Positions 12,419-37,731 of a stretch of 59,952 nt of DNA are shown here, piece after piece. The notes under the pieces are model-generated. The model was not told the origin of the DNA and did not search any database. It saw only the letters and a program-made list of their open reading frames with translations. The stretch comes from a virus. Taxonomy: Duplodnaviria; Caudoviricetes. Made by a program: the position numbers and the translations under genes. The DNA lies in IMG/VR virus record IMGVR_UViG_3300017747_001692, positions 1 to 59,952 of that record; one strand, 5' to 3'. Within the stretch, counting starts at the first letter, position 1, and each line of letters starts with the position of its first letter.

Positions 12419-12628
12419 ATGACCGAGCGCGAAGCGTTCACCGAAGCCGTTGCCGACAGCATCACCGAAGACGTAATGGCATCAGTTGCCGACATACTTT
12501 TTGCCGGAGGCTTGCTTTCCCCCGAAGATGGGCACGGATCGCTCCGTACCAGCCAAGCTGTTTCTGCCGCAATTCATTCAATTGAGCGGACACTTGCCCA
12601 ATTGAAAGATTTCACGGCTCAAGATTGA
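12419..12628 (+). CDS. Hypothetical protein, only plus-strand gene in the late block
   Basis: ATGGAGATCAAGATG RBS of the early-gene type, with an upstream promoter. Confidence 0.55.
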   Translation: MTEREAFTEAVADSITEDVMASVADILFAGGLLSPEDGHGSLRTSQAVSAAIHSIERTLAQLKDFTAQD

Positions 12629-15600
12629 CTTCCCCACCCTTACGCCAACCAAACAACCTTTTATGCTGCTCCTGTTGCTTCATCACGCGATCAACCATTT
12701 CCGCGTCAATCTTCTGCGCCGGGAATTGAGTCATCATTCCCCATTGGGCTTTTGGCCATTGTTTGGGGTCATGCGCAGCGGGGTTAAGTTTATTCCACCA
12801 GTCGCTCCAAATGTCCTTGACGTGGACGGAACTTGGAAGCCCGCCAAGATAAGCCCCAAACTTGGGCGCAGCCATTGACCCCGTGTAGTTACTGTGGGGG
12901 TACGAGGGATTGGCGAGCAATCCACCGCGAGGATCAAGTTCGGCAACGGAATATCCCGCACGAAGGCCGGAGCTTCCAAAAAGACGCGGCTCAGTTATCG
13001 CAAACCTTGTTTGGCCAACATCAGGGAACCCAGCCTTTTGATGGGTTGCAAGATCAAGAGTTTTCGCAAGTTGCTTGCGATCAACAAGATCAAGAGTTTG
13101 CATAAAATCTTCAGCTTCTTGCGTGTTCATAATTCCCGGCCATCCGGGGAATTTTGCCGCCATCTTTGCGTCCACATCCGCGATTGCCGCCTTCGTAATC
13201 TTTGAGCCGGGGATCTGGCGCAACATGGCCTGATAGAACATGTCAGCGGAGTCAGCGGCTTCTGGCGACATCGTGGCTTGAATACCAACGACGCGCTCGC
13301 CTTCTGGTATCCTTCTCTCCAGCGAGTTCATGTAGGTTTGGGCCTTGTCTTTCATGGATGCCCAACCAGCAGGCGCCTCGCCTCGACCGGCTGGACCGCG
13401 AGGGAAATCGCCGCCGCCTTCCGTGTAAAAAGGTTTGGTCAGTTTTTTGCCGCCGATTTCGTGGATAATGACACCGCTTGAGCTTAGGTCGCTAAGAAGC
13501 GGAACGCCCCAAGCTCCTTCAAGGTCTTCCATGGACAATGTTTTACGTGGCTCAAGATAGCCGGGGATCTTTTCATAGCCAACGCTCATATCTTCAAACG
13601 GAATAGCGCCCCGCACTTTTGAGAGTACGGGAACATTGGCCGCAAGATAGGGGTCTTTGGCCAAAATGTCGGCGCCCGTGCGCGTGGTCACGGCCCCGCT
13701 GGGGGTATGCTTGGGGAAGAAAGCTTTAAGCTTCGACAGGTCAGCCGCCTCGGCGTTCTCCGGCGCCAAGGTGGCGGCAGTGGCTGCTGTAGCGCCAGTG
13801 GCTGCGGAAGACGGCAGGCGATACGCCGAGGTCAACGGCTCCGCAGCCAGCCTCTCTAAATTGCCCGCTTTGGTAAACGGCTTCAACATGCCCCGCATGC
13901 CGCCACCAACAGCAATGTCGGCAACAGTTTCGGCTTGCTGCGCCTTCTTAAGATCACCTGTGGCGCGAAGAATGGGATCGCGTACCAAAACGCGCTCTAA
14001 GCCGGTCAGGGGTGACATGGCCATGCCGAGCGCACCGCCAGCCATACCTAGAGCCCCAGCACCGTAATTACCCTCCCTGACGGCTTTGAGGCCCTCGGCG
14101 ACAATATCCGCGTTCTCGCCAAACGCTTCGCCGGTGCGCTTCAAAAATGTTCCCGGACGGCGCTGCGGCATATACTTGTCCCAACCGGTGGGGGCGGCGG
14201 ACATATAGGTTTCGCCCTTCGGGAGATCGCCCTCACCAATGCCCAAGGCGCTAGTCAAGCGCTCGCCTTGCGTGGGCTTCGCCATTTCCAGAACGCTTTC
14301 AGGCGGTGACTCAAACGTGAAGAATGGCGACCGCCCCACTGCCTCGCCGTCAGCGTGATGCTCGCGCACGACGCGCAGGGCGTCGCCAACCTCACCGCCG
14401 TGGGCGTAATCGTGGATTTCTTCCCAATGCACAGACGAACTGGGGCTCACGCGAGCGCCGGGCTCGTGGATGCCTTCAATGTAGTCAACGACATTACCGC
14501 GATAGACATTTGTTACATCCTCGCGGGGAATTTGCCCTATAACACCAATCTCGGATTCGCCAGTTCCGGGGACGCGAGAAATGCTTTCATCGGGAGGGCG
14601 TTTGGCAGCCACGACATATGCGGGACGAGCCGGATCTGGCTTAAACTCTGAAGGGGCAAAACTGTGAGCGTAGCTGCGCGCTTCGTCAGGATTGACTGAG
14701 AAATATGTGAGCCCCTTTTGGCCTTCGCCGATGTTGTGAGTGCCGAGGCTCTGGAGGTAGTTGTTTTTTTGAAAGTTGGCGAACTCCTCCGCAGACATGC
14801 CACGGAAAATCTTGCCGGGGTCGGCCTGAGCCGGAAGATCGTAGGAAAAACCCTCCCGTGGGATGGTTACATCTTTGCTGGCAATGATGTTGCCCGCCTC
14901 ATCAACAAGATCGTCCCTTTTTAAGTCAAAATATTTCGGATTGTAGACACCTTGACGCTCAAGCGAAAATGACCCGCCTTTGTAAGGTTTAAGCTCGGGA
15001 TTTGCCCTGAGAAAGTCTAGCGCCTTCTTAACAAGGCCGCCATCCCCATAATCCTCAACCTCGCCGCCCTCGGCGCGCTCAAGCTTGTGGAAACGCGTCG
15101 CGCCGATGTCCACACCGCCGGTGCGGCCCCACGACGGGGCGGGACGGCCAAGCGCCTCCTGAGCAGCCGGAGCCCAGAAGTTGGTGGCCCCGCCCGTGAT
15201 GTCCTCGCCAGCCATGGCGGCCTCAAGGGCGTCCCGAGCATCGGAATACCGCTGGCTCTTGGGCGAGATCTTCATGGGGTAGTTGGCGCCCGCCGGGTTC
15301 ATCCAAGGTTCAAACTGGCGCTTGGCGAACAGGACGGCCTCGGGGCTGGAGCCATACTTGCCCGAGTTGATGCGGTTGAGGATCACGCTGGCGATGGCCT
15401 GCGTCTCCTCCGGCGACTTGCCGCTCGTCTCCGCCGCGATGGTGCGGATGACGTAGTCGGCCTGTTGCTTAGTCAGCGCCGTGCCGTGGGGCTCCTCGGG
15501 GATGCGGGCCGTCAGCTTGCCGGTCGCCTGATCAATCGCGTTGACTGCGGGGGCAGCGGCCTGCGTGGGGGCGTAGGCGAGCGGCAGGCTCGTAACGGAC

Positions 15601-18922: not shown

Positions 18923-20608
18923 TTAGATTGGATAGAGCGGGGCGGGAGCTTTGCCGACGTGGCGGCGCCCGGCGTCGATCTCAGCCATACGCTCAGGCGC
19001 GCGGACGAGCAAGCCGGTCTCGCGCAAGTGGCGCAGGGCTTGGCTTACTGTATCCACCAAGTCGTCGTTCTTGCCCTTGGGGAAGATCTCGCACTGGCGG
19101 ATGACCATGTCGGCCCACGTCCGGTCGGGGGCGTAGATCATGCCCTCGCTGAACAGGTGCTGGATGGAGTAGACGCGGGCCAGCTTGTCGAGCGATCCGG
19201 GGTTGATGAGCTGGACGGCCCAGTCCTCGTTGCCGTAGAGGCGCCTGATTTCCTGCGCGACGGACAAGCCCGAGGCCTTGCCCTCGACGAGCAGCTTGTC
19301 CACGCGGAACTTGCGGCAGAACCCGGCCACCTTGTGGACGAGTTCGGACAGCTCCAGCTTGCCCTGCCACGCGCCCATCATGATGACGCGCGGGACGGAC
19401 TCGGGACTGTGGTCGAGCATGTCCCGGACGCGGACGCCCTCGTCGAAGCGGCTGGCCTCGTCGGCGTTGTTCTTGAAGCGCCCGCGCGCGTTGACGAAGT
19501 TCTCGGCCCGCATGGTCGAGTAGTCGCCGCTGAAGACGCCCCAAACCGTCAGGGCGCTGAAGTCGTTCTCTTGCTTGGTCGTGTAGGCCGTGTCGAGGCT
19601 GGCCACGACGTAGTCGATGGGCGGCCACGCCTCCTCCATCCACGTCTCCCACCACGCGGCCTTGATGACCTCGCCGCCCCGGGGCGCGGGCTCCTGCTGG
19701 TGCTGCCCGGCGGTGGCGTAGGGGCCCATCGACCGCTCGTCGCGGTCCACGACCTCCATCGGGAAGCGGGCGGGAAAGAGCAGCTCGCCCTCCTCCTGCC
19801 GGGGGTCCTCGATGCCGAGCATCGTGGGCCGGGCCCGGATTGGGTCATAGCGCATGGGCAGCATGACGTGGTCGTAGCCGAGCTGTTTGTCGAGGATGAC
19901 GCCGGACACGTCGCTCTCGTGCAGGCGCTGCATGATGACGACGATGGCCGACTCAATGGGACTGGTGAGGCGGGTCGGAATGGCCTCAAGGAAGGTGTTG
20001 ACCTCGGTCTCGCGCATGGCGTCAGAGGCCGCGCTGTCCACGCTGTGGGGATCGTCGATGATGACCCGGTCGCCGCGAATACCCGTGAGCGACGTGATGG
20101 CCGTGGCGATACGGAAGCCCTGCGACGAGTTGACGAAGTTGAGCTTCTCGTTCTGGTCGCGGGCCAGCGATACCCGGTCGCCCCAGCGCTTCTGATACCA
20201 GTCGGACGTGACGAGCTGGCGCATGCGGCGGCTGTCTCGGGCGCTGAGGTTCTCGATCTTGTGGGCGGCGCAGACGTAGCGCAGGTGGGGCATGTTGCGC
20301 GGGCCCCACTCCCACGCGGGCCAGAAGACGTTGGTGATGAGCGACTTCATGGTGCCCGGCGGCACGTTGATCAGGAGGCGGTTGTAGAGGCGCCCGTCTT
20401 CCAGCTCGACGCCGTCCGTGATGGCCATGAGGTGTGCGGCGATGAAGTCGATGTGCCAGCCGTGGACGTAGGGCGCGCCGGGCTCAATGACGTGCCACGC
20501 CTGCTTGATGAACGTGACGAGGTCCAGCTCGGCCTCGTACTTGTCGAGTTCGAATAGGGTCTGGTCGATGTCGATCTTCTGATCGCCATATGTGATGTAG
20601 CGTGGCAT
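18923..20608 (-). CDS. terL: Terminase large subunit
   Basis: LLINVPPGTMKS (Walker A), IIDDPH (Walker B), IMQRLH, SLDTAY, VEGKASG, NDDLVD nuclease motifs; start taken at MPRYITY. Confidence 0.92.
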   Translation of the reverse strand: MPRYITYGDQKIDIDQTLFELDKYEAELDLVTFIKQAWHVIEPGAPYVHGWHIDFIAAHLMAITDGVELEDGRLYNRLLINVPPGTMKSLITNVFWPAWEWGPRNMPHLRYVCAAHKIENLSARDSRRMRQLVTSDWYQKRWGDRVSLARDQNEKLNFVNSSQGFRIATAITSLTGIRGDRVIIDDPHSVDSAASDAMRETEVNTFLEAIPTRLTSPIESAIVVIMQRLHESDVSGVILDKQLGYDHVMLPMRYDPIRARPTMLGIEDPRQEEGELLFPARFPMEVVDRDERSMGPYATAGQHQQEPAPRGGEVIKAAWWETWMEEAWPPIDYVVASLDTAYTTKQENDFSALTVWGVFSGDYSTMRAENFVNARGRFKNNADEASRFDEGVRVRDMLDHSPESVPRVIMMGAWQGKLELSELVHKVAGFCRKFRVDKLLVEGKASGLSVAQEIRRLYGNEDWAVQLINPGSLDKLARVYSIQHLFSEGMIYAPDRTWADMVIRQCEIFPKGKNDDLVDTVSQALRHLRETGLLVRAPERMAEIDAGRRHVGKAPAPLYPI

Positions 20609-20820
20609 CAGCAGTCCAGCCCTATGCGGTCCACGAGGTATGTCCCGAACAGGCCCATGACTTCGAACAGCATCATGACCTCTTCGTGGCTCGGGTCGGT
20701 CGAATAGATCAGGTCGCCATCCGGGGCCTCGTAGCAGTAGCCCTCGTCGGCTGTGTCCAGTTCGGGGCGTCGGAGCCAGCCGTAAGTCCAGTGGGGGCCG
20801 CAGGATTGGTATGGCTTCAT
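20608..20820 (-). CDS. Hypothetical protein
   Basis: MKPYQSCGPHW... after GGAG; coupled to neighbours. Confidence 0.55.
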   Translation of the reverse strand: MKPYQSCGPHWTYGWLRRPELDTADEGYCYEAPDGDLIYSTDPSHEEVMMLFEVMGLFGTYLVDRIGLDC

Positions 20821-21008
20821 TGCCTTCTCCCCATCGTGATGTTGATCTGCGCCCGGATCTCTTGGTTGCGCCACGACCAGCACTCGCCGTTCTGCTGGAA
20901 CACGACCCAGACGAGATCCATTTCGGCGCCGTAGTCGATAATGACGTGCGCAAGGCCCGGCCCCTTGGGCGTCATGACGGGCAGCGGCGGGTTGAGCTGG
21001 AGCATCAC
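20817..21008 (-). CDS. Hypothetical protein
   Basis: LQLNPPLPVMTPKG...IDYG.E.DL.WVVF; coupled to TerS. Confidence 0.65.
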   Translation of the reverse strand: MMLQLNPPLPVMTPKGPGLAHVIIDYGAEMDLVWVVFQQNGECWSWRNQEIRAQINITMGRRQ

Positions 21009-21478
21009 CGCTCTCCGGGATCGTGCTCGATGACCTTTCCGGCTGACGTGAGGGCCAGCCTGAGCGCCTCGCGGGCGTCATCGTCGAGCTGGCGCACGTC
21101 AACCGCGCTGTTGGTGACGATGGTGATTTGCGGGGCGTCGTCGCGTTTTTCCGTGTAATCCTCGCGGAAACGAGCGGTGACCGACTTCGTCCAAACCTGC
21201 GCGTTGAACTTGTCCGCGATCATTCCAGCCTTACCCGCGCGCTCCCACCAAGCCTGTTCATGAACCTTTGCACGCGTCATAGCTGTGCGAAATTCTTCGT
21301 GTTCATCTGACCATCTTATGAGAGTAGCTCGATCAACATCAAGCTCTGAGGCGATCTCCGCAGGCGAGCAGCCCTGCTTTCCAAGCTCGATAACCTTCTC
21401 ACAATACTCGGGCCGATAAAGCGACGGACGACCGACAGGCCGCTTCTCCTTGATTTGCTTCTTAACAGCCATGTTCAA
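21005..21478 (-). CDS. terS: Terminase small subunit
   Basis: GRPSLYRPEYCE plus HTH plus WSDEHEEF; upstream of TerL. Confidence 0.75.
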   Translation of the reverse strand: MNMAVKKQIKEKRPVGRPSLYRPEYCEKVIELGKQGCSPAEIASELDVDRATLIRWSDEHEEFRTAMTRAKVHEQAWWERAGKAGMIADKFNAQVWTKSVTARFREDYTEKRDDAPQITIVTNSAVDVRQLDDDAREALRLALTSAGKVIEHDPGER

Positions 21479-21496: not shown

Positions 21497-21640
21497 TCAA
21501 TCGTCTTTTTCGAGCGCGTCGAGGTAAGCTTCGAGCATTTCCTCGTCGAGTTCTTCTTCCTCGTCGGGCGCGTCGTCTTCGCCGAGGTCGCGGAGGATCT
21601 CGTCGTTTTCGATTTCAAGAGCGATGTCGTCTTCGTCCAT
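21497..21640 (-). CDS. Very acidic 47-aa protein
   Basis: MDEDDIALEIENDEIL...LEKDD; GAGGGG RBS; 25 of 47 residues are D/E. Confidence 0.65.
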   Translation of the reverse strand: MDEDDIALEIENDEILRDLGEDDAPDEEEELDEEMLEAYLDALEKDD

Positions 21641-21758
21641 GTTCAAGCCCCTCTCATTCTGATCAAAGATAATCCGTCTGGGGCCAAAGGACAATGACCC
21701 CCAGAATTGCGGGCGGAACGTCCCCCTGAAATTATTTTTCAAAAATGGCAAAAATCGT

Positions 21759-21787
21759 TTGACAGGCGAAATATCTTCGCCTATAAC
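21759..21787 (+). promoter_or_regulatory. Strong sigma70 promoter with palindromic operator as spacer (P1)
   Basis: TTGACA-GGCGAAATATCTTCGCC-TATAAC. Confidence 0.8.
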
Positions 21788-21833
21788 TTTAATCACGGTC
21801 TGAGACCGAACGACTTACCTGATGGAGATCGAC

Positions 21834-22112
21834 ATGACTTTCAACTTCTACGGCCTCGGCGAAACCCTCCCCTGCCTGACCTTCACTGCCACTGGCGACG
21901 GCCTCTGGGACACTCTCTGTGAGAACATCGTTGACCACGTCCTTGGCGCTGACCCCTACTCCGAGGCCGCCGCCCGCGATTTGATCGACATCGTCGCCAT
22001 GCAGACCCCTGACGAATCTGAGTACACCGAGGCGGTGTTTGTGCAGGGCAAGCTGGTTGGCTCGATGGACACGCCCTTTTGGCTGGACCCCAGCGAGTAT
22101 GTGAAGATCTGA
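21834..22112 (+). CDS. Acidic early hypothetical protein
   Basis: ATGGAGATCGACATG RBS directly after P1. Confidence 0.75.
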   Translation: MTFNFYGLGETLPCLTFTATGDGLWDTLCENIVDHVLGADPYSEAAARDLIDIVAMQTPDESEYTEAVFVQGKLVGSMDTPFWLDPSEYVKI

Positions 22113-22151
22113 AAAAATTATCCATAGGGTGCGAAAATGCTTCGCACCCTG

Positions 22152-22180
22152 TTGACAGGCGAAATGATTTCGCCTAAGAT
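22152..22180 (+). promoter_or_regulatory. Sigma70 promoter with palindromic operator as spacer (P2)
   Basis: TTGACA-GGCGAAATGATTTCGCC-TAAGAT; related palindrome GGGTGCGAAAATGCTTCGCACCC just upstream. Confidence 0.8.
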
Positions 22181-22224
22181 CAAATCACGGTCGAAATAAA
22201 GACCGCAACCTGATGGAGATTGAT

Positions 22225-22518
22225 ATGACCAACACCGTCGCCGCCGTTGAAGTTTACCTCGCCGCTAAGGCGCAATCAGACGCCGCCGAAACTGTCCTGA
22301 AGGCCGCCAAGTCCGACGTAATCGCCATCGTCGGCGGCTACGGCTTTATCGAGGGCGAGACCGCCGACCTTGACGTGGCCGTGCAGGCCCGCTCCTCAAT
22401 CAACGAAAAGCTCCTCCTTCAGTTCCTGACGCAAGAACAGATCGACGCCTGCAAGGTCGAGGGCGCCGCCTTCCCCGTCGTCCGCATCAAGCCCAAGAAG
22501 GTCCGCAAGGCCGCCTAA
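22225..22518 (+). CDS. Early hypothetical protein
   Basis: ATGGAGATTGATATG RBS; high codon bias. Confidence 0.75.
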   Translation: MTNTVAAVEVYLAAKAQSDAAETVLKAAKSDVIAIVGGYGFIEGETADLDVAVQARSSINEKLLLQFLTQEQIDACKVEGAAFPVVRIKPKKVRKAA

Positions 22519-22567
22519 TCATCAACGGGGGCGCACAGCCCCCACCACCCACCAAATGGAGATCGAC

Positions 22568-22765
22568 ATGCAAAAGCTGATTGACGCCTACCGCAAAGAC
22601 CCCACCGACATGGCGGCGCTCAAGCTCGCCCATCACGCGAAAAAACACCCCATGAGTGTGTGCCTGCTGACCGTGGCCGACGCCGCCCTGATCGGCAAGG
22701 CGCGTGAGCAGCTCGCGCCCCACGTCGAGAAGTTGAAGGCCGTCATCGTGGGGGAGGTGATCTGA
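22568..22765 (+). CDS. Early hypothetical protein
   Basis: ATGGAGATCGACATG RBS. Confidence 0.7.
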   Translation: MQKLIDAYRKDPTDMAALKLAHHAKKHPMSVCLLTVADAALIGKAREQLAPHVEKLKAVIVGEVI

Positions 22766-22968
22766 TGCCACATCCTGTTCACACCTCCCTCAACAAGGAC
22801 GGCACCTTTTCCGTCTACTACTTCGACCGCCTGATAGGATACCTCGCCAAGGGCTCCATGAGGTCCAAGGGCAGGCCCATCTGGCGGGCGCTATCCATCC
22901 ACGGCGACTTGCGCCACACCCACTCACAGGCCTCCGCACGGGCCGCGCTGCTGGAGATGAGCCATTGA
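22765..22968 (+). CDS. Early hypothetical protein
   Basis: TGATG coupling; GGAGG RBS. Confidence 0.65.
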   Translation: MPHPVHTSLNKDGTFSVYYFDRLIGYLAKGSMRSKGRPIWRALSIHGDLRHTHSQASARAALLEMSH

Positions 22969-23186
22969 GCGCCGCCGACCTCAAGCAAATGATGGACGAC
23001 CTCGGCTTCACCACCGGCGACGTGGCCGTCCTGATGGGCGTGACGCGCCGGACCCCCCAGCTCTGGCTGTCCGGCCACTCGCCCATCCCCCAATCCGTCG
23101 CCATCCTGCTGCGGGCGATCAGGGACGGCCTGCTGCCGCTGGAGTGGGTCGAAGACAGAATACTTGAGACTATCAAGCTTTCCTGA
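22965..23186 (+). CDS. Small HTH (XRE/Aca-like) regulator
   Basis: LKQMMDDLGFTTGDVAVLMGVTRRTPQLWLSGHSPIP is an HTH pattern; last gene of the operon. Confidence 0.7.
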   Translation: MSAADLKQMMDDLGFTTGDVAVLMGVTRRTPQLWLSGHSPIPQSVAILLRAIRDGLLPLEWVEDRILETIKLS

Positions 23187-23211
23187 CGCCCGAGGGGGTG
23201 CGTCGGGACAG

Positions 23212-23253
23212 GGGGCCGGGGAGCAGGTGCTGCGTTTCCCCGGCCCTTTTTAT
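23212..23253 (+). terminator. Rho-independent terminator
   Basis: GGGCCGGGGA...TCCCCGGCCC followed by TTTTTATT. Confidence 0.7.
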
Positions 23254-23535
23254 TCGCCCGGCCTGCCCCACTTCCAGCCCCACAGGCACAGCATCCGCCT
23301 CCCGCCGGGCGTCATGACGGCCCGGCCCCTGCTCAACAACGTGTCAAGCGCGGCGTTGATTTCGGCGGGTGTGCCACGATCACGAAACTGTTGTGTAACA
23401 TAATACATGTTCAGGTGGCCCTCCCTCTGCATCGCATTCCACAGCACGTCAGACAGATCCTTTTCGGGAATCGGGTCCACGCTGAACAACTCGTCGTCGA
23501 TATTCCTGTTCATGCCAAAAGCCTCATTTTCAATC

Positions 23536-23778: not shown

Positions 23779-26259
23779 TCAAAACGGCTCGTCGCTAAAA
23801 TCTTTTTCCCCGTTAAAAAAATCTTTGACTATGTTTTTTGCCAAGTCGCTCGTCATCTGCTTCCCCGGGGGGACCACTGATCCCCGCCGAAACCAGACCG
23901 TATGCTTGTCCTCGGCTTTATTTATTTTAACCTTTCGGCCCTCGATTTGAACAAAACCCATGTCGCTCAGGATGTGCGCCAACTTGGAAGTCATGGGCAT
24001 ATCTTTGCCGTCAGCCGTCGCCATTCGGTTAAGATATGTAACATCAATAAGGTCCTGACTGACGATGTCGCAGGCGTAGTCGGCCATCGCATTTTCCACA
24101 TTCTCGCGGTCTTCAGAAATGTGCATGTTGCGCATGTCCGACAGGCCCTCAGTTTCGGGCGCCCGCCCCGCCGGTGAGAAATCGGCTGACACCTTCCAGT
24201 CCAACAAGAACCGGGCCAGAGCATCCGGGCGGCGCTCCAAATCGCCAAACAACTCCCCAAAGTACGCCGACGCCCCCTCCTTGCCCCCAAGCTCTGCAAA
24301 GAGATCCTCCTTGCGGGTCTGGCGGGTGAAGATCACGCAGTAGCGCCGGTCGTTGTCGCCAACCGGGATGGCGTCGGCGTGGTTGGTCATCATCATGTAG
24401 GACGTAAAGTTGGGAATATGCTTCTCGTTCTTGCCCTTGTGGACAACCGGGATGGTGTCGTTGCTGATGATCGGCTTCATCTTGTCGAGGATGGCGTACT
24501 TGTTGACGCCAGAGATGCGGATCTCCTCGACGCAGGCCAGAATGGAGCCCTCGGCCCACCCGGTGAACGCTGAGTCGATAGCCGTCGTCGAAACGACCGA
24601 CGCCTGCCGCCCCAATAGCGCCTGCATGACCCGGAAGAAGTACGACTTGCCGTTTCCCTCAATCCCCTTAAGCAGCAAGGCCCATTGCACCCGCCTGCCG
24701 GGGTTTTGGTACACGAAGGCCATGAAGTCGAGGATGATGCGCCGCTCGCGCTCCACGCCCACCGTTAAAGCAAGGTGGCGGAGGAACCTGTCCACAACCG
24801 CCTGACCATCCTCATCCAGTTCCGCGCAGGGCTCAACGCCGTCCTTCTCATAAGTGTTAAGGTAGGTCAGTCCGGTTTTGGCGTCTGTGAAAATTGGGCC
24901 GAAGCCCGGCCAGTACATCTTGGCGGAAACGTGTGGAATTAAGTTGTTGCGCATCAAGAAGGTGACCGCGTCGAGTTCTGAGCCGATGACCTCGGGCCTG
25001 CCTGAATTGGCGATGCGAAAGGCGTCAGGCTTAACCGAGTGACGGGTTGAGACGCGCTCGAACGTGTTCTCCCCAGAACAAAAAACCAAATCCTTCGCCC
25101 ACTCCGGCGCCTCGGCGTCACCGAAAAAACCGTCACCCTTGTCCTTGCCGCCGGGCTTTGCGGGCCTGAAGGCCTTCTTAACCTCCGAGAGCGTCATCCC
25201 CGCCCCCTTACCGAAGGACACATGGACAAGATTGGCCAACATGGCCCGGCTGTCCAAGTGGAGCTGGGCCTCGCTCATGGCGTTGAGCTTGTTGCGCAGG
25301 ACGGTGTAGGCCTCGCGGGTCATGACCCCCTTGGCTTCGGCCTCAAGCGCCTCGAAAATAGAACTGCTGGGCTGAATCTCGACCGCCGCCCGGCGTCCAC
25401 CGGCGAGGTGAATGATCGAGGCCATTGTGACGGGGTTGCGGTCACCGCCAAAGGAGCGCCACTTGGTCCTCATGTGCCGGGGGTCGTGCTTGCTGCTTTT
25501 TTCGCTCCACGCCAGCCAACGGCCCCAACCGTCCGGCGATCCCCGAAACTGGTGATAGAGCGCCATGCCGACGCGCAGCCACTCGTCATAGTCCTTCCCC
25601 TCGGCGGGGTAGTTCTCCAGTAGGGCATCGACTTCGCCGACGCTCATGTCGAGCGGCTCAGAGGCCACTAAAATCTCAAGGTCACTGAAGTCGTCATCTT
25701 CGCCCCCAGCCGAAATCGCAATTTCGGTTATGTTGACCGCCCACGGCTCCCCGTCCTGACGCAGGGACCAAGGCGTGACGCCCTCCCGGTTGCTGGGCAG
25801 GAACATGATCTGGGACATAGTAAAACTGCACGGGTCCACGTTCCCGAGGCCCACGAGGCGAACGATGTCGTTGACGATGACGCGGTACTCGGCCTCGTTA
25901 ACGGGGCGGCTCAGGGGAACGCACAGGCGAAAGCGCGGGACTTCGGGCGTGTGCCGGAAGGTTGAGTAGGCCACGAAGGCGCAGGGCATCGTCATCCCGA
26001 GCTGGAACTCAATGTCCGCCAGTGAACCCTTGGGGGCGTCAAAGTCGAGCGTGGCGACCGTGCGCAAGACAATGTTGCCGTCTGCGCGCCCCTTGTCCTC
26101 GTCTGCGCGAATGCCGCCAACGAACGCCGCCCGCTTAATCGAGGCCTCTTTGTTTGGGTAGGCCTTGAAGGTAGTTAGGCTCTTGGCCATGTCGGGCCAC
26201 GGGCGCTCCAGTGTCACCGCCGTCGCAAAATTTTTGCAGTAGGTGAAGCGGATCATCAT
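23779..26259 (-). CDS. Primase-helicase (primase, PriCT-2, SF3/D5-like NTPase)
   Basis: LDFD, YSTFRH.P..PRFR, YDEWLRVGMAL (PriCT_2), GIEGNGKS Walker A, VEEI, TNH...DRRY. Confidence 0.88.
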   Translation of the reverse strand: MMIRFTYCKNFATAVTLERPWPDMAKSLTTFKAYPNKEASIKRAAFVGGIRADEDKGRADGNIVLRTVATLDFDAPKGSLADIEFQLGMTMPCAFVAYSTFRHTPEVPRFRLCVPLSRPVNEAEYRVIVNDIVRLVGLGNVDPCSFTMSQIMFLPSNREGVTPWSLRQDGEPWAVNITEIAISAGGEDDDFSDLEILVASEPLDMSVGEVDALLENYPAEGKDYDEWLRVGMALYHQFRGSPDGWGRWLAWSEKSSKHDPRHMRTKWRSFGGDRNPVTMASIIHLAGGRRAAVEIQPSSSIFEALEAEAKGVMTREAYTVLRNKLNAMSEAQLHLDSRAMLANLVHVSFGKGAGMTLSEVKKAFRPAKPGGKDKGDGFFGDAEAPEWAKDLVFCSGENTFERVSTRHSVKPDAFRIANSGRPEVIGSELDAVTFLMRNNLIPHVSAKMYWPGFGPIFTDAKTGLTYLNTYEKDGVEPCAELDEDGQAVVDRFLRHLALTVGVERERRIILDFMAFVYQNPGRRVQWALLLKGIEGNGKSYFFRVMQALLGRQASVVSTTAIDSAFTGWAEGSILACVEEIRISGVNKYAILDKMKPIISNDTIPVVHKGKNEKHIPNFTSYMMMTNHADAIPVGDNDRRYCVIFTRQTRKEDLFAELGGKEGASAYFGELFGDLERRPDALARFLLDWKVSADFSPAGRAPETEGLSDMRNMHISEDRENVENAMADYACDIVSQDLIDVTYLNRMATADGKDMPMTSKLAHILSDMGFVQIEGRKVKINKAEDKHTVWFRRGSVVPPGKQMTSDLAKNIVKDFFNGEKDFSDEPF

Positions 26260-26476: not shown

Positions 26477-26505
26477 TTGACACTTATTCGACCATATCGT
26501 ACAAA
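26477..26505 (+). promoter_or_regulatory. Sigma70-like promoter for the replication operon
   Basis: TTGACA-N17-TACAAA in the divergent intergenic region. Confidence 0.5.
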
Positions 26506-34310: not shown

Positions 34311-34377
34311 GTTACAGATCGTGGGCGCCCTGATGCTGCTCATCACCGTCAACGTGATCATTGGGTGGGGAGGCTGA
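34294..34377 (+). CDS. Putative 27-aa membrane peptide
   Basis: [27 protein letters not shown]; GGGAG RBS; fills the gap between neighbours. Confidence 0.45.
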
Positions 34378-34378
34378 T

Positions 34379-35005
34379 GTGTCTGATCCCAAAGACTACC
34401 GGATTGAGATTAAGGTCAAAAACAATCGCCTCCTGACCAAGATGGAGCAGGCGGGCTACCCCACTGTGGCGAAGCTTGCTGACACAATTGGTATGAATCG
34501 CACCGTCATATATCGCATCGTCAGTATGAAGTCTGCGGCGCTTGATGAGGAGGGTTATTACCGGCCCGAAGCTTTACGCATAGCGGAGTTCCTCAAATGC
34601 ACTCCGCAGGACATTTACCCTCCCGCGCAGATGCGTGGGACCATGAAGGAAAACAAGGCCCAAATAACGGCCAATGCAAATGAGGTTGACTCGCTCACCT
34701 CGTCCCTGCGGACGCTGGCGTTCTCGCCCGAGCGCAAGATGATCTTGAATGAAGCCAATCAAGCTTTAAAGGCGGCAATGATGACGCTGACGCCAAAAGA
34801 GCAGCGCATATTAGATTTGCGTTACGGGTTGACCTATGGCGAAGAAAAAACATTGGACGAAGTTGGCGCCATGTTTGGAGTTTCTCGTGAACGAATCCGT
34901 CAACATGAAATGAAAGCCCTGCGCAAAATGAGGCATCCGGGGCGCTCAAAAGAACTGCGGGAAAACCTTAACGAACTGACCATTGACCCGTTGGACCAAA
35001 AATGA
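34379..35005 (+). CDS. XRE-like HTH fused to sigma70 region 4
   Basis: C-terminus [14 protein letters not shown]...[28 protein letters not shown] is RpoD region 4-like; GTG start after GGAGG. Confidence 0.8.
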
Positions 35006-36804: not shown

Positions 36805-37009
36805 TTGGGTTAAAGAGTGCCGCGAGGAGGCGGCCAACACCTTTTACACGCCATTGAAGGAAGCATGGACGAATGTCGGCGACCACATTGAAAAATTAGA
36901 GACAGCCCTCCGCGAGGTCGCTAAGATCAACAATCAGCGCGACCGATTCAGCTCAGACATCGACGCCATTATCATTAACGCACTGGGAGAAAAAAATGAT
37001 GACGCTTGA
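36797..37009 (+). CDS. Hypothetical protein
   Basis: HIEKLETAL...NALGEKND. Confidence 0.55.
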   Translation: MSDWVKECREEAANTFYTPLKEAWTNVGDHIEKLETALREVAKINNQRDRFSSDIDAIIINALGEKNDDA

Positions 37010-37499
37010 AGAACTCCACGCACACTACAAGGCCGTCCGCGCCCGTTTGGATGGCGGTGTAAAGAAAGAGCCCGCATTCCGGCTCATCTACCCGGAGCCT
37101 CCCCCGGCGGTCTACCCTGACCCCATTGATGTTCCGACGCCTGCCACGGAGCCCGTTGCCGCCCCTGCGGCGGCCACTGAGACGCCCGCCCGCAGGATAA
37201 TGAATGAGGTGGCCGAGAAGCATAACATGCCCGTGGCGGCCTTCCGCAGCCAGAGCAGAACGATGCCCTTTGTGAACCTTCGGCACGAGGCCTGCTACCG
37301 ACTGAGCACGGAGCTGGGTTTTTCCCTCAAGCAAATTGGGCGCCTGATGGGCAACCGCGATCATACGACAGTAATGAACGCCATCAGAAGGCATAAAAAA
37401 ATCCTCGCCGAGGGTTACAAGCCCAAGACGAGGACCAAGTGCGTTTCGAGCGCCCGTGTCACTCAGGTGGAACCACAGACGCAACATGATCATGGATGA
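36996..37499 (+). CDS. DnaA C-terminal (domain IV)-like DNA-binding protein
   Basis: R..ACYRL...GFSLKQIGRLMGNRDHTTVMNAIRR, the DnaA signature. Confidence 0.8.
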   Translation: MMTLEELHAHYKAVRARLDGGVKKEPAFRLIYPEPPPAVYPDPIDVPTPATEPVAAPAAATETPARRIMNEVAEKHNMPVAAFRSQSRTMPFVNLRHEACYRLSTELGFSLKQIGRLMGNRDHTTVMNAIRRHKKILAEGYKPKTRTKCVSSARVTQVEPQTQHDHG

Positions 37500-37731
37500 T
37501 CTTGACGCCAAGAGCAAGGAGGCCCCCACCAAAAATGATGGGGGCCAATCACTATTTGGTGTAACGATCTTGGATCTGCGGATCTTCCACTGCCGCTACA
37601 TCGTCAACGAGGCGGAGGCGCTATTCTGTGGCGCCGAAGTGTACCGCGTCTCGTACTGCAAAGCGCACTATCGGCTGTGCTACGTCAAGCCTAAGCGCCC
37701 GCCGCCAGCGCCTGTATCTGCGCCGAGATAG
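37486..37731 (+). CDS. GcrA C-terminal domain-like protein
   Basis: ILDL...CRY......FCG......YC..H...Y pattern of GcrA. Confidence 0.7.
   Translation: MIMDDLDAKSKEAPTKNDGGQSLFGVTILDLRIFHCRYIVNEAEALFCGAEVYRVSYCKAHYRLCYVKPKRPPPAPVSAPR

Follow-up and report, generated by a model that had tools for sequence, protein, structure and literature searches.

A promoter-operator array and a terminal Aca2-like helix-turn-helix gene outline a probable self-repressed early operon in a metagenomic phage genome

Among the anti-CRISPR-associated (Aca) regulators, the closest described counterpart of the locus reported here is Aca2, the helix-turn-helix (HTH) protein of the acrIF8-aca2 operon of Pectobacterium phage ZF40. 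In its account of the Aca2 operator, PMC8633003 gives the inverted repeat IR1 as TTGCTT-GTTCGC-GATT-GCGAAC-ATATA, located between the -35 and -10 elements, and another repeat, weaker than IR1 but sharing its TTCG core, is described in PMC6765145. The contacts described in PMC8633003 comprise a base-specific one between Arg30 and the half-site G, while Ser28, Ser31, Gln33 and Trp35 contact phosphates; Tyr34 and Arg39 are reported there to be required for DNA binding as well. For the wider group of Aca proteins, the operons presented in PMC13551039 include regulators predicted or shown to control several adjacent operons and anti-CRISPR (acr)-aca operons with DNA-modification genes inside them. 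Here we describe an operon on the plus strand, from position 21759 to about 23254, of the IMG/VR virus record IMGVR_UViG_3300017747_001692 (Duplodnaviria; Caudoviricetes). The window, by which we mean the whole 59,952-bp stretch of DNA that was analysed, is a complete virus record with direct terminal repeats. We consider it rather probable that the locus is a self-repressed immediate-early phage operon under Aca-type negative feedback exerted by its terminal HTH protein.

The operon is flanked by minus-strand packaging genes on one side and a minus-strand primase block on the other. Its features along the plus strand are the following:

21759-21787 (+), promoter P1 with operator O1: -35 element TTGACA at 21759-21764, spacer GGCGAAATATCTTCGCC at 21765-21781, -10 element TATAAC at 21782-21787.
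21797-21809 (+), hairpin CGGTC-TGA-GACCG in the 5' leader of the P1 transcript, predicted by folding.
21834-22112 (+), orf1, 92 amino acids (aa); family F3, found at 14 loci, in some relatives only.
22118-22126 (+), DnaA-box-like nonamer TTATCCATA with one mismatch, upstream of P2.
22126-22150 (+), hairpin containing the putative auxiliary operator, palindrome GCGAAAATGCTTCGC at 22131-22145, 28 bp upstream of O2.
22152-22180 (+), promoter P2 with operator O2: -35 element TTGACA at 22152-22157, spacer GGCGAAATGATTTCGCC at 22158-22174, -10 element TAAGAT at 22175-22180.
22188-22205 (+), hairpin CGGTC-N8-GACCG in the 5' leader of the P2 transcript, predicted by folding.
22225-22518 (+), orf2, 97 aa; family F0, found at 25 loci, the first gene after the P2-type promoter.
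22568-22765 (+), orf3, 65 aa; family F2, found at 21 loci, conserved in the lineage.
22765-22968 (+), orf4, 67 aa; five strands and a C-terminal helix, the conserved neighbour of the HTH gene.
22965-23186 (+), orf5, 73 aa, Aca2-like HTH protein with a TTG start; the proposed autorepressor.
About 23210-23254 (+), stem resembling an intrinsic terminator, with TTTTTATT behind it; the operon ends here and faces a convergent gene of 125 aa.

At both P1 and P2, the palindrome GGCGAA-N5-TTCGCC constitutes the entire 17-nt spacer, and it occurs at these two promoters only in the genome. The sequence GCGAA-N5-TTCGC was found three times in 59,952 bp, in each case at the operon, with 0.11 occurrences expected by chance and none of 100 shuffles reaching three. 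Compared to the sigma-70 consensus, P1 matches at 11 and P2 at 10 of 12 positions; sites with at least 10 matches numbered five in the whole genome on both strands, P1 and P2 included. The consensus scanner listed only P2, because the -10 element of P1 ends in C. Such -10 elements with a final C resemble the alphaproteobacterial housekeeping consensus. Two other strong sigma-70-like sites were noticed, TTGACA-17-TACAAA at 26477-26505, which heads the plus-strand replication block, and TTGACC-16-TATAAT at 7060-7033 on the minus strand, both without the palindrome.

The third palindrome forms the core of the hairpin at 22126-22150, which has 9-bp arms, a folding energy of -20.3 kcal/mol and a z-score of -5.6. 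An intrinsic terminator was considered at this position; the hairpin is strong but followed by GTTGA instead of a T run. From its sequence, we read the third palindrome as an auxiliary operator at P2 and not as a terminator. Downstream of either promoter, the leader contains the CGGTC..GACCG hairpin, then ACCTGATGGAGAT and an ATG. Five open reading frames (ORFs) follow, each with a GGAG ribosome site. The operon is closed at about 23210-23254 by UUUUUAUU and a stem rich in G+C (-39.1 kcal/mol). Thus, the anatomy given in the earlier note on this DNA, namely near-consensus promoters with palindromic 17-nt spacers, a third GCGAA-N5-TTCGC at 22131-22145, a duplicated leader, and four small ORFs followed by a 73-aa HTH gene and a terminator, was recovered in full. 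Both features on which its comparison with acr-aca operons was based, a small terminal HTH gene and an inverted repeat overlapping the promoter, are present.

Relatives were collected as 15 viral contigs via the HTH protein, two contigs binned in metagenome-assembled genomes (MAGs) and nine more contigs of the lineage via an operator-pattern scan. Synteny of the locus is maintained in these relatives, where it is flanked by the small terminase gene and the primase gene. Promoter, operator, hairpin and ribosome site form a unit, of which each of 14 complete operons has two to four copies. Comparing 25 non-identical units of the window and of its metagenomic relatives, we found the GCGAA half-site conserved, position by position, in 25, 25, 25, 24 and 25 units and the TTCGC half-site in 25, 20, 25, 25 and 24 units, while the commonest base at the three central operator positions was shared by 9, 9 and 14 units. 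Conserved half-sites around a free centre would be expected where a dimeric protein binds. In addition, relatives possess a palindrome with one mismatch at the position matching the auxiliary operator, upstream of the P2-type promoter. In all 25 units, the predicted transcript has a 5'-terminal hairpin, and in three of them compensatory changes preserve the stem. The loop varies between 3 and 8 nt, which speaks in favour of a structure in the RNA rather than another protein-binding site on the DNA. A collection-wide operator scan returned 118 loci; the full unit was present in 13 of these, all encoding the lineage's proteins, and 103 loci had neither the unit nor these proteins.

The TTG start codon of the HTH gene at 22965 overlaps the stop codon of orf4. 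Its product belongs to a family of 59 proteins, all generically named, in a collection of 5.8 billion proteins. Using a profile built from 20 family members, the best match in the PDB was Aca2 (7ezy_A, E 8.6e-4), and further Aca2 entries were matched with E 0.05-0.3. The AlphaFold2 (AF2) model, with a predicted local distance difference test score (pLDDT) of 94.4, consists of five helices only. It was placed closest to Aca2 by Foldseek as well (7ezy_A, TMq 0.70, root-mean-square deviation 0.9 over 55 columns, 31% identity), followed by HigA2 antitoxin chains at ranks 2-6, Aca1 at ranks 17-29 and controller proteins; all leading fold matches were XRE-type HTH proteins. Among the PHROGs, orf5 matched phrog_14076, a transcriptional regulator (E 5e-5). 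In the profile alignment, Ser28, Arg30, Ser31, Gln33 and Trp35 of Aca2 correspond to Thr27, Arg29, Thr30, Gln32 and Trp34 of the HTH protein. Arg29, Gln32 and Trp34 are invariant in all 20 family members, and the position equivalent to Arg39 of Aca2 is occupied by His, Arg, Lys or other residues.

Based on these findings, we propose the following course of events. The operon would be transcribed by the host housekeeping RNA polymerase as an immediate-early operon of two tandem cassettes, P1-orf1 and P2-orf2-orf3-orf4-HTH. Upon entry of the phage, P1 and P2 would fire, and the HTH protein, as the last product of the same transcript, would accumulate and bind the operators, probably as a dimer. 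Sitting between the -35 and -10 boxes, it would exclude RNA polymerase and so produce a short pulse of expression followed by self shut-off. Binding is probably made cooperative by the auxiliary site at P2, and the stability or translation of each transcript is probably also controlled through the RNA hairpin at its 5' terminus. The most likely theme of the cargo would be early host takeover or counter-defence.

The products of orf1 to orf4 had no match to a named Acr or a characterised family in Pfam, the PHROGs or the PDB. For orf1, there was no Pfam match above the cut-off, the best being DUF7754 (E 0.0045, below the cut-off), and neither a PHROG nor a PDB match. Its interpretation as a GNAT fragment was rejected; it obtained an Atlas score of 0.95 but 141 shared features against the 170 typical of true members, and Pfam gave no acetyltransferase.

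With E values of at most 1e-3, the orf2 family was represented in 121 clusters of 50% identity. The names of 137 proteins found with the orf2-family profile A4 were uninformative, a profile search of the PDB gave nothing significant and the Atlas gave unnamed viral clusters only. Weak matches to DUF7307 were obtained for only 5 of 62 family members. Moreover, 28 of the 62 members end in AA, mostly as VAA, IAA, LAA or EAA. A C-terminal AA resembles the ssrA-type ClpXP degron. Such a tail would suggest, judged from the sequence, that the proteins of this family are short-lived.

For orf3 there was no match in the PDB. Orf4 has 68 homologues and an AF2 model with a pLDDT of 89, for which Foldseek returned nothing at E 0.001 or better and VIA-align a best Z of 5.5. 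An AP2/Arm-type DNA binder, suggested for orf4 by a sequence pattern, was not supported; the AP2 protein 7wq5 ranked no higher than 38, and its Z of 3.8 is within the noise.

When the locus genes of all contigs were clustered, 34 families resulted, and 17 of these had a single occurrence. The variable part of the locus consists of the upstream cassettes, and among the genes of the window only the position of orf1 is truly variable. A constant backbone is formed by the P2-type promoter, orf2, orf3, orf4, sometimes a C5 DNA methyltransferase, and the HTH gene; of 14 complete operons, 13 have orf2 directly behind the last promoter. The methyltransferase gene is located between orf4 and the HTH gene in seven related contigs; it was recognised as PF00145 (E 2.8e-14) in the one copy scanned, and the other copies were linked to it via BLAST clustering. 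Of ten other cassette genes of relatives, none was matched in Pfam and five were matched in the PHROGs, four to function-unknown families and one to an HNH endonuclease. The locus is thus a diversity hotspot, which, together with the methyltransferase in relatives, provides indirect support for an anti-defence theme.

More distant loci were fetched around two distant members of the orf2 family, and 14 loci were inspected. In most of these, the orf2-family gene comes first behind a sigma-70-like promoter whose spacer contains another palindrome, for example ATGCCC-N3-GGGCAT, ATGAC-N5-GTCAT or GCATCGTACGATGC, followed by a hairpin and a GGAG site. One locus, L144, encodes after its orf2-like gene an orf4-like (hhalign 96%, E 1e-9) and an HTH-like protein (90%, E 1.9e-6) in the same order as in the window, as well as a C5 methyltransferase-like ORF recognised by its motif only. 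Another, L143, has an HTH-like gene (92%) plus a second paralogue. The recognition helices read RRTPQLW in the window, ERTIYKW in L144 and ERTVYRW in L143, and the palindromes differ too; for these three lineages, the joint difference of helix and palindrome fits an HTH protein that reads the palindrome.

A far-reaching extension, which we offer tentatively and think unlikely, would be that orf2, orf4 and an Aca2-like HTH gene, often with a C5 methyltransferase, form an early module of several unrelated phage lineages that is re-keyed by exchange of palindrome and recognition helix. Orf2 would then be a pulse-expressed effector, restricted by HTH occlusion, the 5' hairpin and the ssrA-like AA tail, and a new, widespread host-takeover or counter-defence factor, while the HTH protein would represent a new Aca family reading an everted Aca2 half-site through a different dimer. 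In yet another lineage (L154, L156, L158 and L161), the palindrome ACATCGTACGATGC is present two to four times within about 7 kb, beside TTGACA-like boxes and on both strands; these loci give the impression of a larger regulon built on the same plan.

Several results speak against the proposed feedback model or limit it. The similarity to Aca2 is marginal, with a profile E-value of 8.6e-4: none of the 20 HTH family members reached any Pfam cut-off, with HTH families matched only below the cut-offs; the Foldseek search of the model gave no match at E 0.001; and the Pfam family Aca2_YdiL (PF08965), searched with a limit of E 10, was not matched anywhere in the genome and was not among the families matched by the 20 members. 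The residues Tyr34 and Arg39, needed for DNA binding by Aca2, are replaced by Leu33 and His38. With 73 aa, the HTH protein lacks the C-terminal dimerisation domain of Aca2, the chains of which have 115-125 aa. Furthermore, the half-sites are everted, GCGAA-N5-TTCGC here versus TTCGC-N4-GCGAA in the Aca2 operator as described. Hence, the dimer geometry is an assumption, since the half-sites oppose those of IR1 and the dimerisation domain is absent. The co-occurrence of operator and HTH gene is confined to one syntenic lineage and is therefore not independent evidence. For the cargo, nothing was found that links it to defence systems, and orf2 and orf4, being conserved between lineages, are unlike the typical variable acr cargo.

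The everted half-sites, the missing dimerisation domain and the failure of Aca2_YdiL led us to read the HTH protein as a member of a new Aca2-like family rather than of the Aca2 family, one that, according to sequence and model, would work like Aca2. For the comparison with Aca families that the earlier note had proposed, Aca2 is the best match among solved structures by profile and by fold, without a match to Aca2_YdiL in Pfam. The acr-aca interpretation is well supported for the regulatory half, with an Aca2-like HTH protein, its contact residues, the operator and their conservation, but no known or demonstrated anti-defence gene was found with Pfam, the PHROGs and the PDB. The view of the four ORFs as candidate anti-defence proteins is in line with the variable hotspot and the methyltransferase in relatives; on the other side, orf2 to orf4 belong to the conserved backbone. 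An anti-defence role of the cargo is plausible by analogy, given the hotspot behaviour, the methyltransferase and the parallels in the operons presented in PMC13551039; orf2 and orf4 are conserved between lineages, which is equally indicative of an early function belonging to the phage core.

Such a core function underlies the strongest alternative, which we judge unlikely but to be taken seriously. The same switch would then serve a core early programme, i.e. takeover of host replication, recombination or expression, with the HTH protein as a Cro-like early-to-middle switch and small proteins that are essential or nearly so. It would account for the fixed backbone of orf2, orf3, orf4 and HTH gene, including the constant place of orf2 after the last promoter, and for the reappearance of orf2-, orf4- and HTH-like genes in unchanged order behind another palindrome in the distant locus L144. 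Consistent with it are also the matches that 12 of 62 orf2-family members have to phrog_434, in its C-terminal part, a PHROG with the annotation RecE-like exonuclease, and the DnaA-, GcrA- and sigma-like fragments encoded elsewhere in the phage. However, the highly variable upstream cassettes and the C5 methyltransferase carried at the locus by relatives are typical of counter-defence hotspots, and none of the ORFs has a demonstrated core function.

It is improbable, in our view, that the palindromes are bound by another protein, such as a phage-encoded fusion of an HTH and sigma region 4 or a host regulator, and that the terminal HTH protein targets something else. Candidates for such binding are encoded in the genome, and we count them against the feedback model: the fusion at 34361-35005 combines Sigma70_r4 (E 1e-18) with a Cro/C1-type HTH_26 domain, with no region 2 detected, and a protein consisting of DnaA domain IV is encoded at 36996-37499. 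The sigma part of the fusion could sit on TTGACA, and a perfect -35 hexamer is directly adjacent to the operator; synteny within one lineage, in turn, is what links the HTH protein to the operator. Against this alternative stand the Aca2 DNA-contact residues of the HTH protein, the occurrence of the same pentamer in the Aca2 operator, and the absence of the palindrome elsewhere in the genome, which fits a regulator dedicated to its own operon. We consider it highly improbable that orf4 and the HTH gene form a toxin-first, HigB-HigA-type toxin-antitoxin-like pair whose antitoxin autoregulates via the palindromes: the HigA2 chains in the fold search, the 4-nt overlap of the two genes and their being the most constant pair at the locus are outweighed by an orf4 model without a solved-chain relative above Z 5.5, by the methyltransferase gene that splits the pair in seven related contigs, and by operators located 600-1200 bp upstream with other genes intervening. 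Among the matches listed by the two fold searches of orf4, none is named as a RelE/HigB-like toxin.

A further observation concerns the region upstream of the promoters. A perfect TTATCCACA, which we take to be the DnaA-box consensus, is located exactly 14 nt upstream of the -35 element in ten promoter units of relatives (units of L004-L014), and these are the units with a weakened -35 element, TTTACA or TAGACA. The DnaA-domain-IV-only protein of the window matches PF08299 with 58 bits. Judged from these sequences, this phage protein or the host DnaA might act on the promoters bearing TTATCCACA.

In the genome, the operon follows the genes for the large (18923-20953) and small (21005-21478) terminase subunits on the minus strand. 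The primase-helicase gene is located at 23779-26259 on the minus strand, and genes for an exonuclease, a Gp2.5-like single-stranded DNA-binding protein, a DNA polymerase and a helicase follow on the plus strand from 26986 onwards. No tRNA genes were found in the 59,952-bp genome. A search of the genome for tyrosine integrases and serine recombinases yielded none, so the phage is probably virulent. By its terminase, the nearest deposited phage record is MW202675, a metagenomic Caudoviricetes genome, with 59.6% identity. The operon region had no DNA match to deposited phage records in blastn; with tblastn against phage records, the HTH protein led to three weak records and orf2 to none. At least half of the sampled words of the region were present in three public runs from three studies, all labelled freshwater metagenome, and no RNA data set was listed as containing the region.

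With regard to the host, two related contigs (L019 and L020), one of which has with 58,587 bp the length of a phage genome, are contained in Opitutae MAGs. The window, however, encodes at 37456-37731 a fragment (PF07750, E 6.5e-4, below the cut-off) resembling GcrA, a regulator of Alphaproteobacteria. A minus-strand ORF of 47 aa (21497-21640), immediately upstream of the gene for the small terminase subunit, consists of about one half Asp and Glu; it is 98% identical in L005, has no Pfam or PHROG match and might serve as a DNA mimic or as an accessory protein in packaging. A plus-strand ORF of 69 aa (12420-12629), located between two structural genes of the minus strand, has the ribosome-site context ATGGAGAT-N4-ATG, as in the operon, and a small palindrome, GCCAC-A-GTGGC, upstream. 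It looks like an inserted accessory gene.

If the HTH protein binds the palindrome, this phage lineage adds a family of short, Aca2-related regulators with an easily recognised operator, and this operator would help to find early as well as counter-defence genes of freshwater phages that are uncultured. The combination of everted half-sites with conserved contact residues would show a recognition helix re-used in a different dimer. The orf2 family, with at least 121 clusters at 50% identity, repeatedly heads such operons and is thereby a concrete candidate for functional screening.

Among the known systems, HigA2 antitoxins and the controller (C) proteins of restriction-modification systems have the same small XRE-type fold and autoregulate via palindromes in their own promoters. 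Unlike in these, the HTH gene here has no recognisable toxin or restriction enzyme partner and is located far downstream of its putative operators. Aca1 of Pseudomonas phage JBD30 is a small (about 70-80 aa), all-helical HTH dimer acting on inverted repeats at the acr promoter, but it is less similar to the HTH protein than Aca2 and has another recognition helix and another operator.

Compared to the acrIF8-aca2 operon of ZF40, as far as it is described in PMC6765145 and PMC8633003, the HTH protein is of the same sub-type and keeps the equivalents of Arg30, Gln33 and Trp35. Common to both operons are the inverted TTCGC/GCGAA pentamers in the -35/-10 spacer, a nearby second repeat (the weaker one in ZF40), a hairpin in the 5' untranslated region and the position of the regulator downstream of small unknown genes. 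Besides the orientation of the half-sites, they differ in the size of the regulator, 73 aa without a C-terminal dimerisation domain here versus about 120 aa. The stem of the 5' hairpin (CGGTC/GACCG) is unrelated to the operator here, unlike in ZF40. Unlike the ZF40 operon, the locus contains no known Acr gene, and the phage appears virulent, whereas ZF40 is temperate. The HTH family lies outside the Aca families named in the part of PMC13551039 considered here, the supplementary operon lists of which (RefSeq, IMG/VR) might include the lineage. In its organisation, the operon resembles those of Aca1, Aca2, Aca11, Aca13 and Aca14, presented there as predicted or shown to control several adjacent anti-defence operons: likewise, one regulator is combined with two to four copies of its site before neighbouring cassettes, the cargo is mostly unannotated, and some relatives carry DNA-modification genes.

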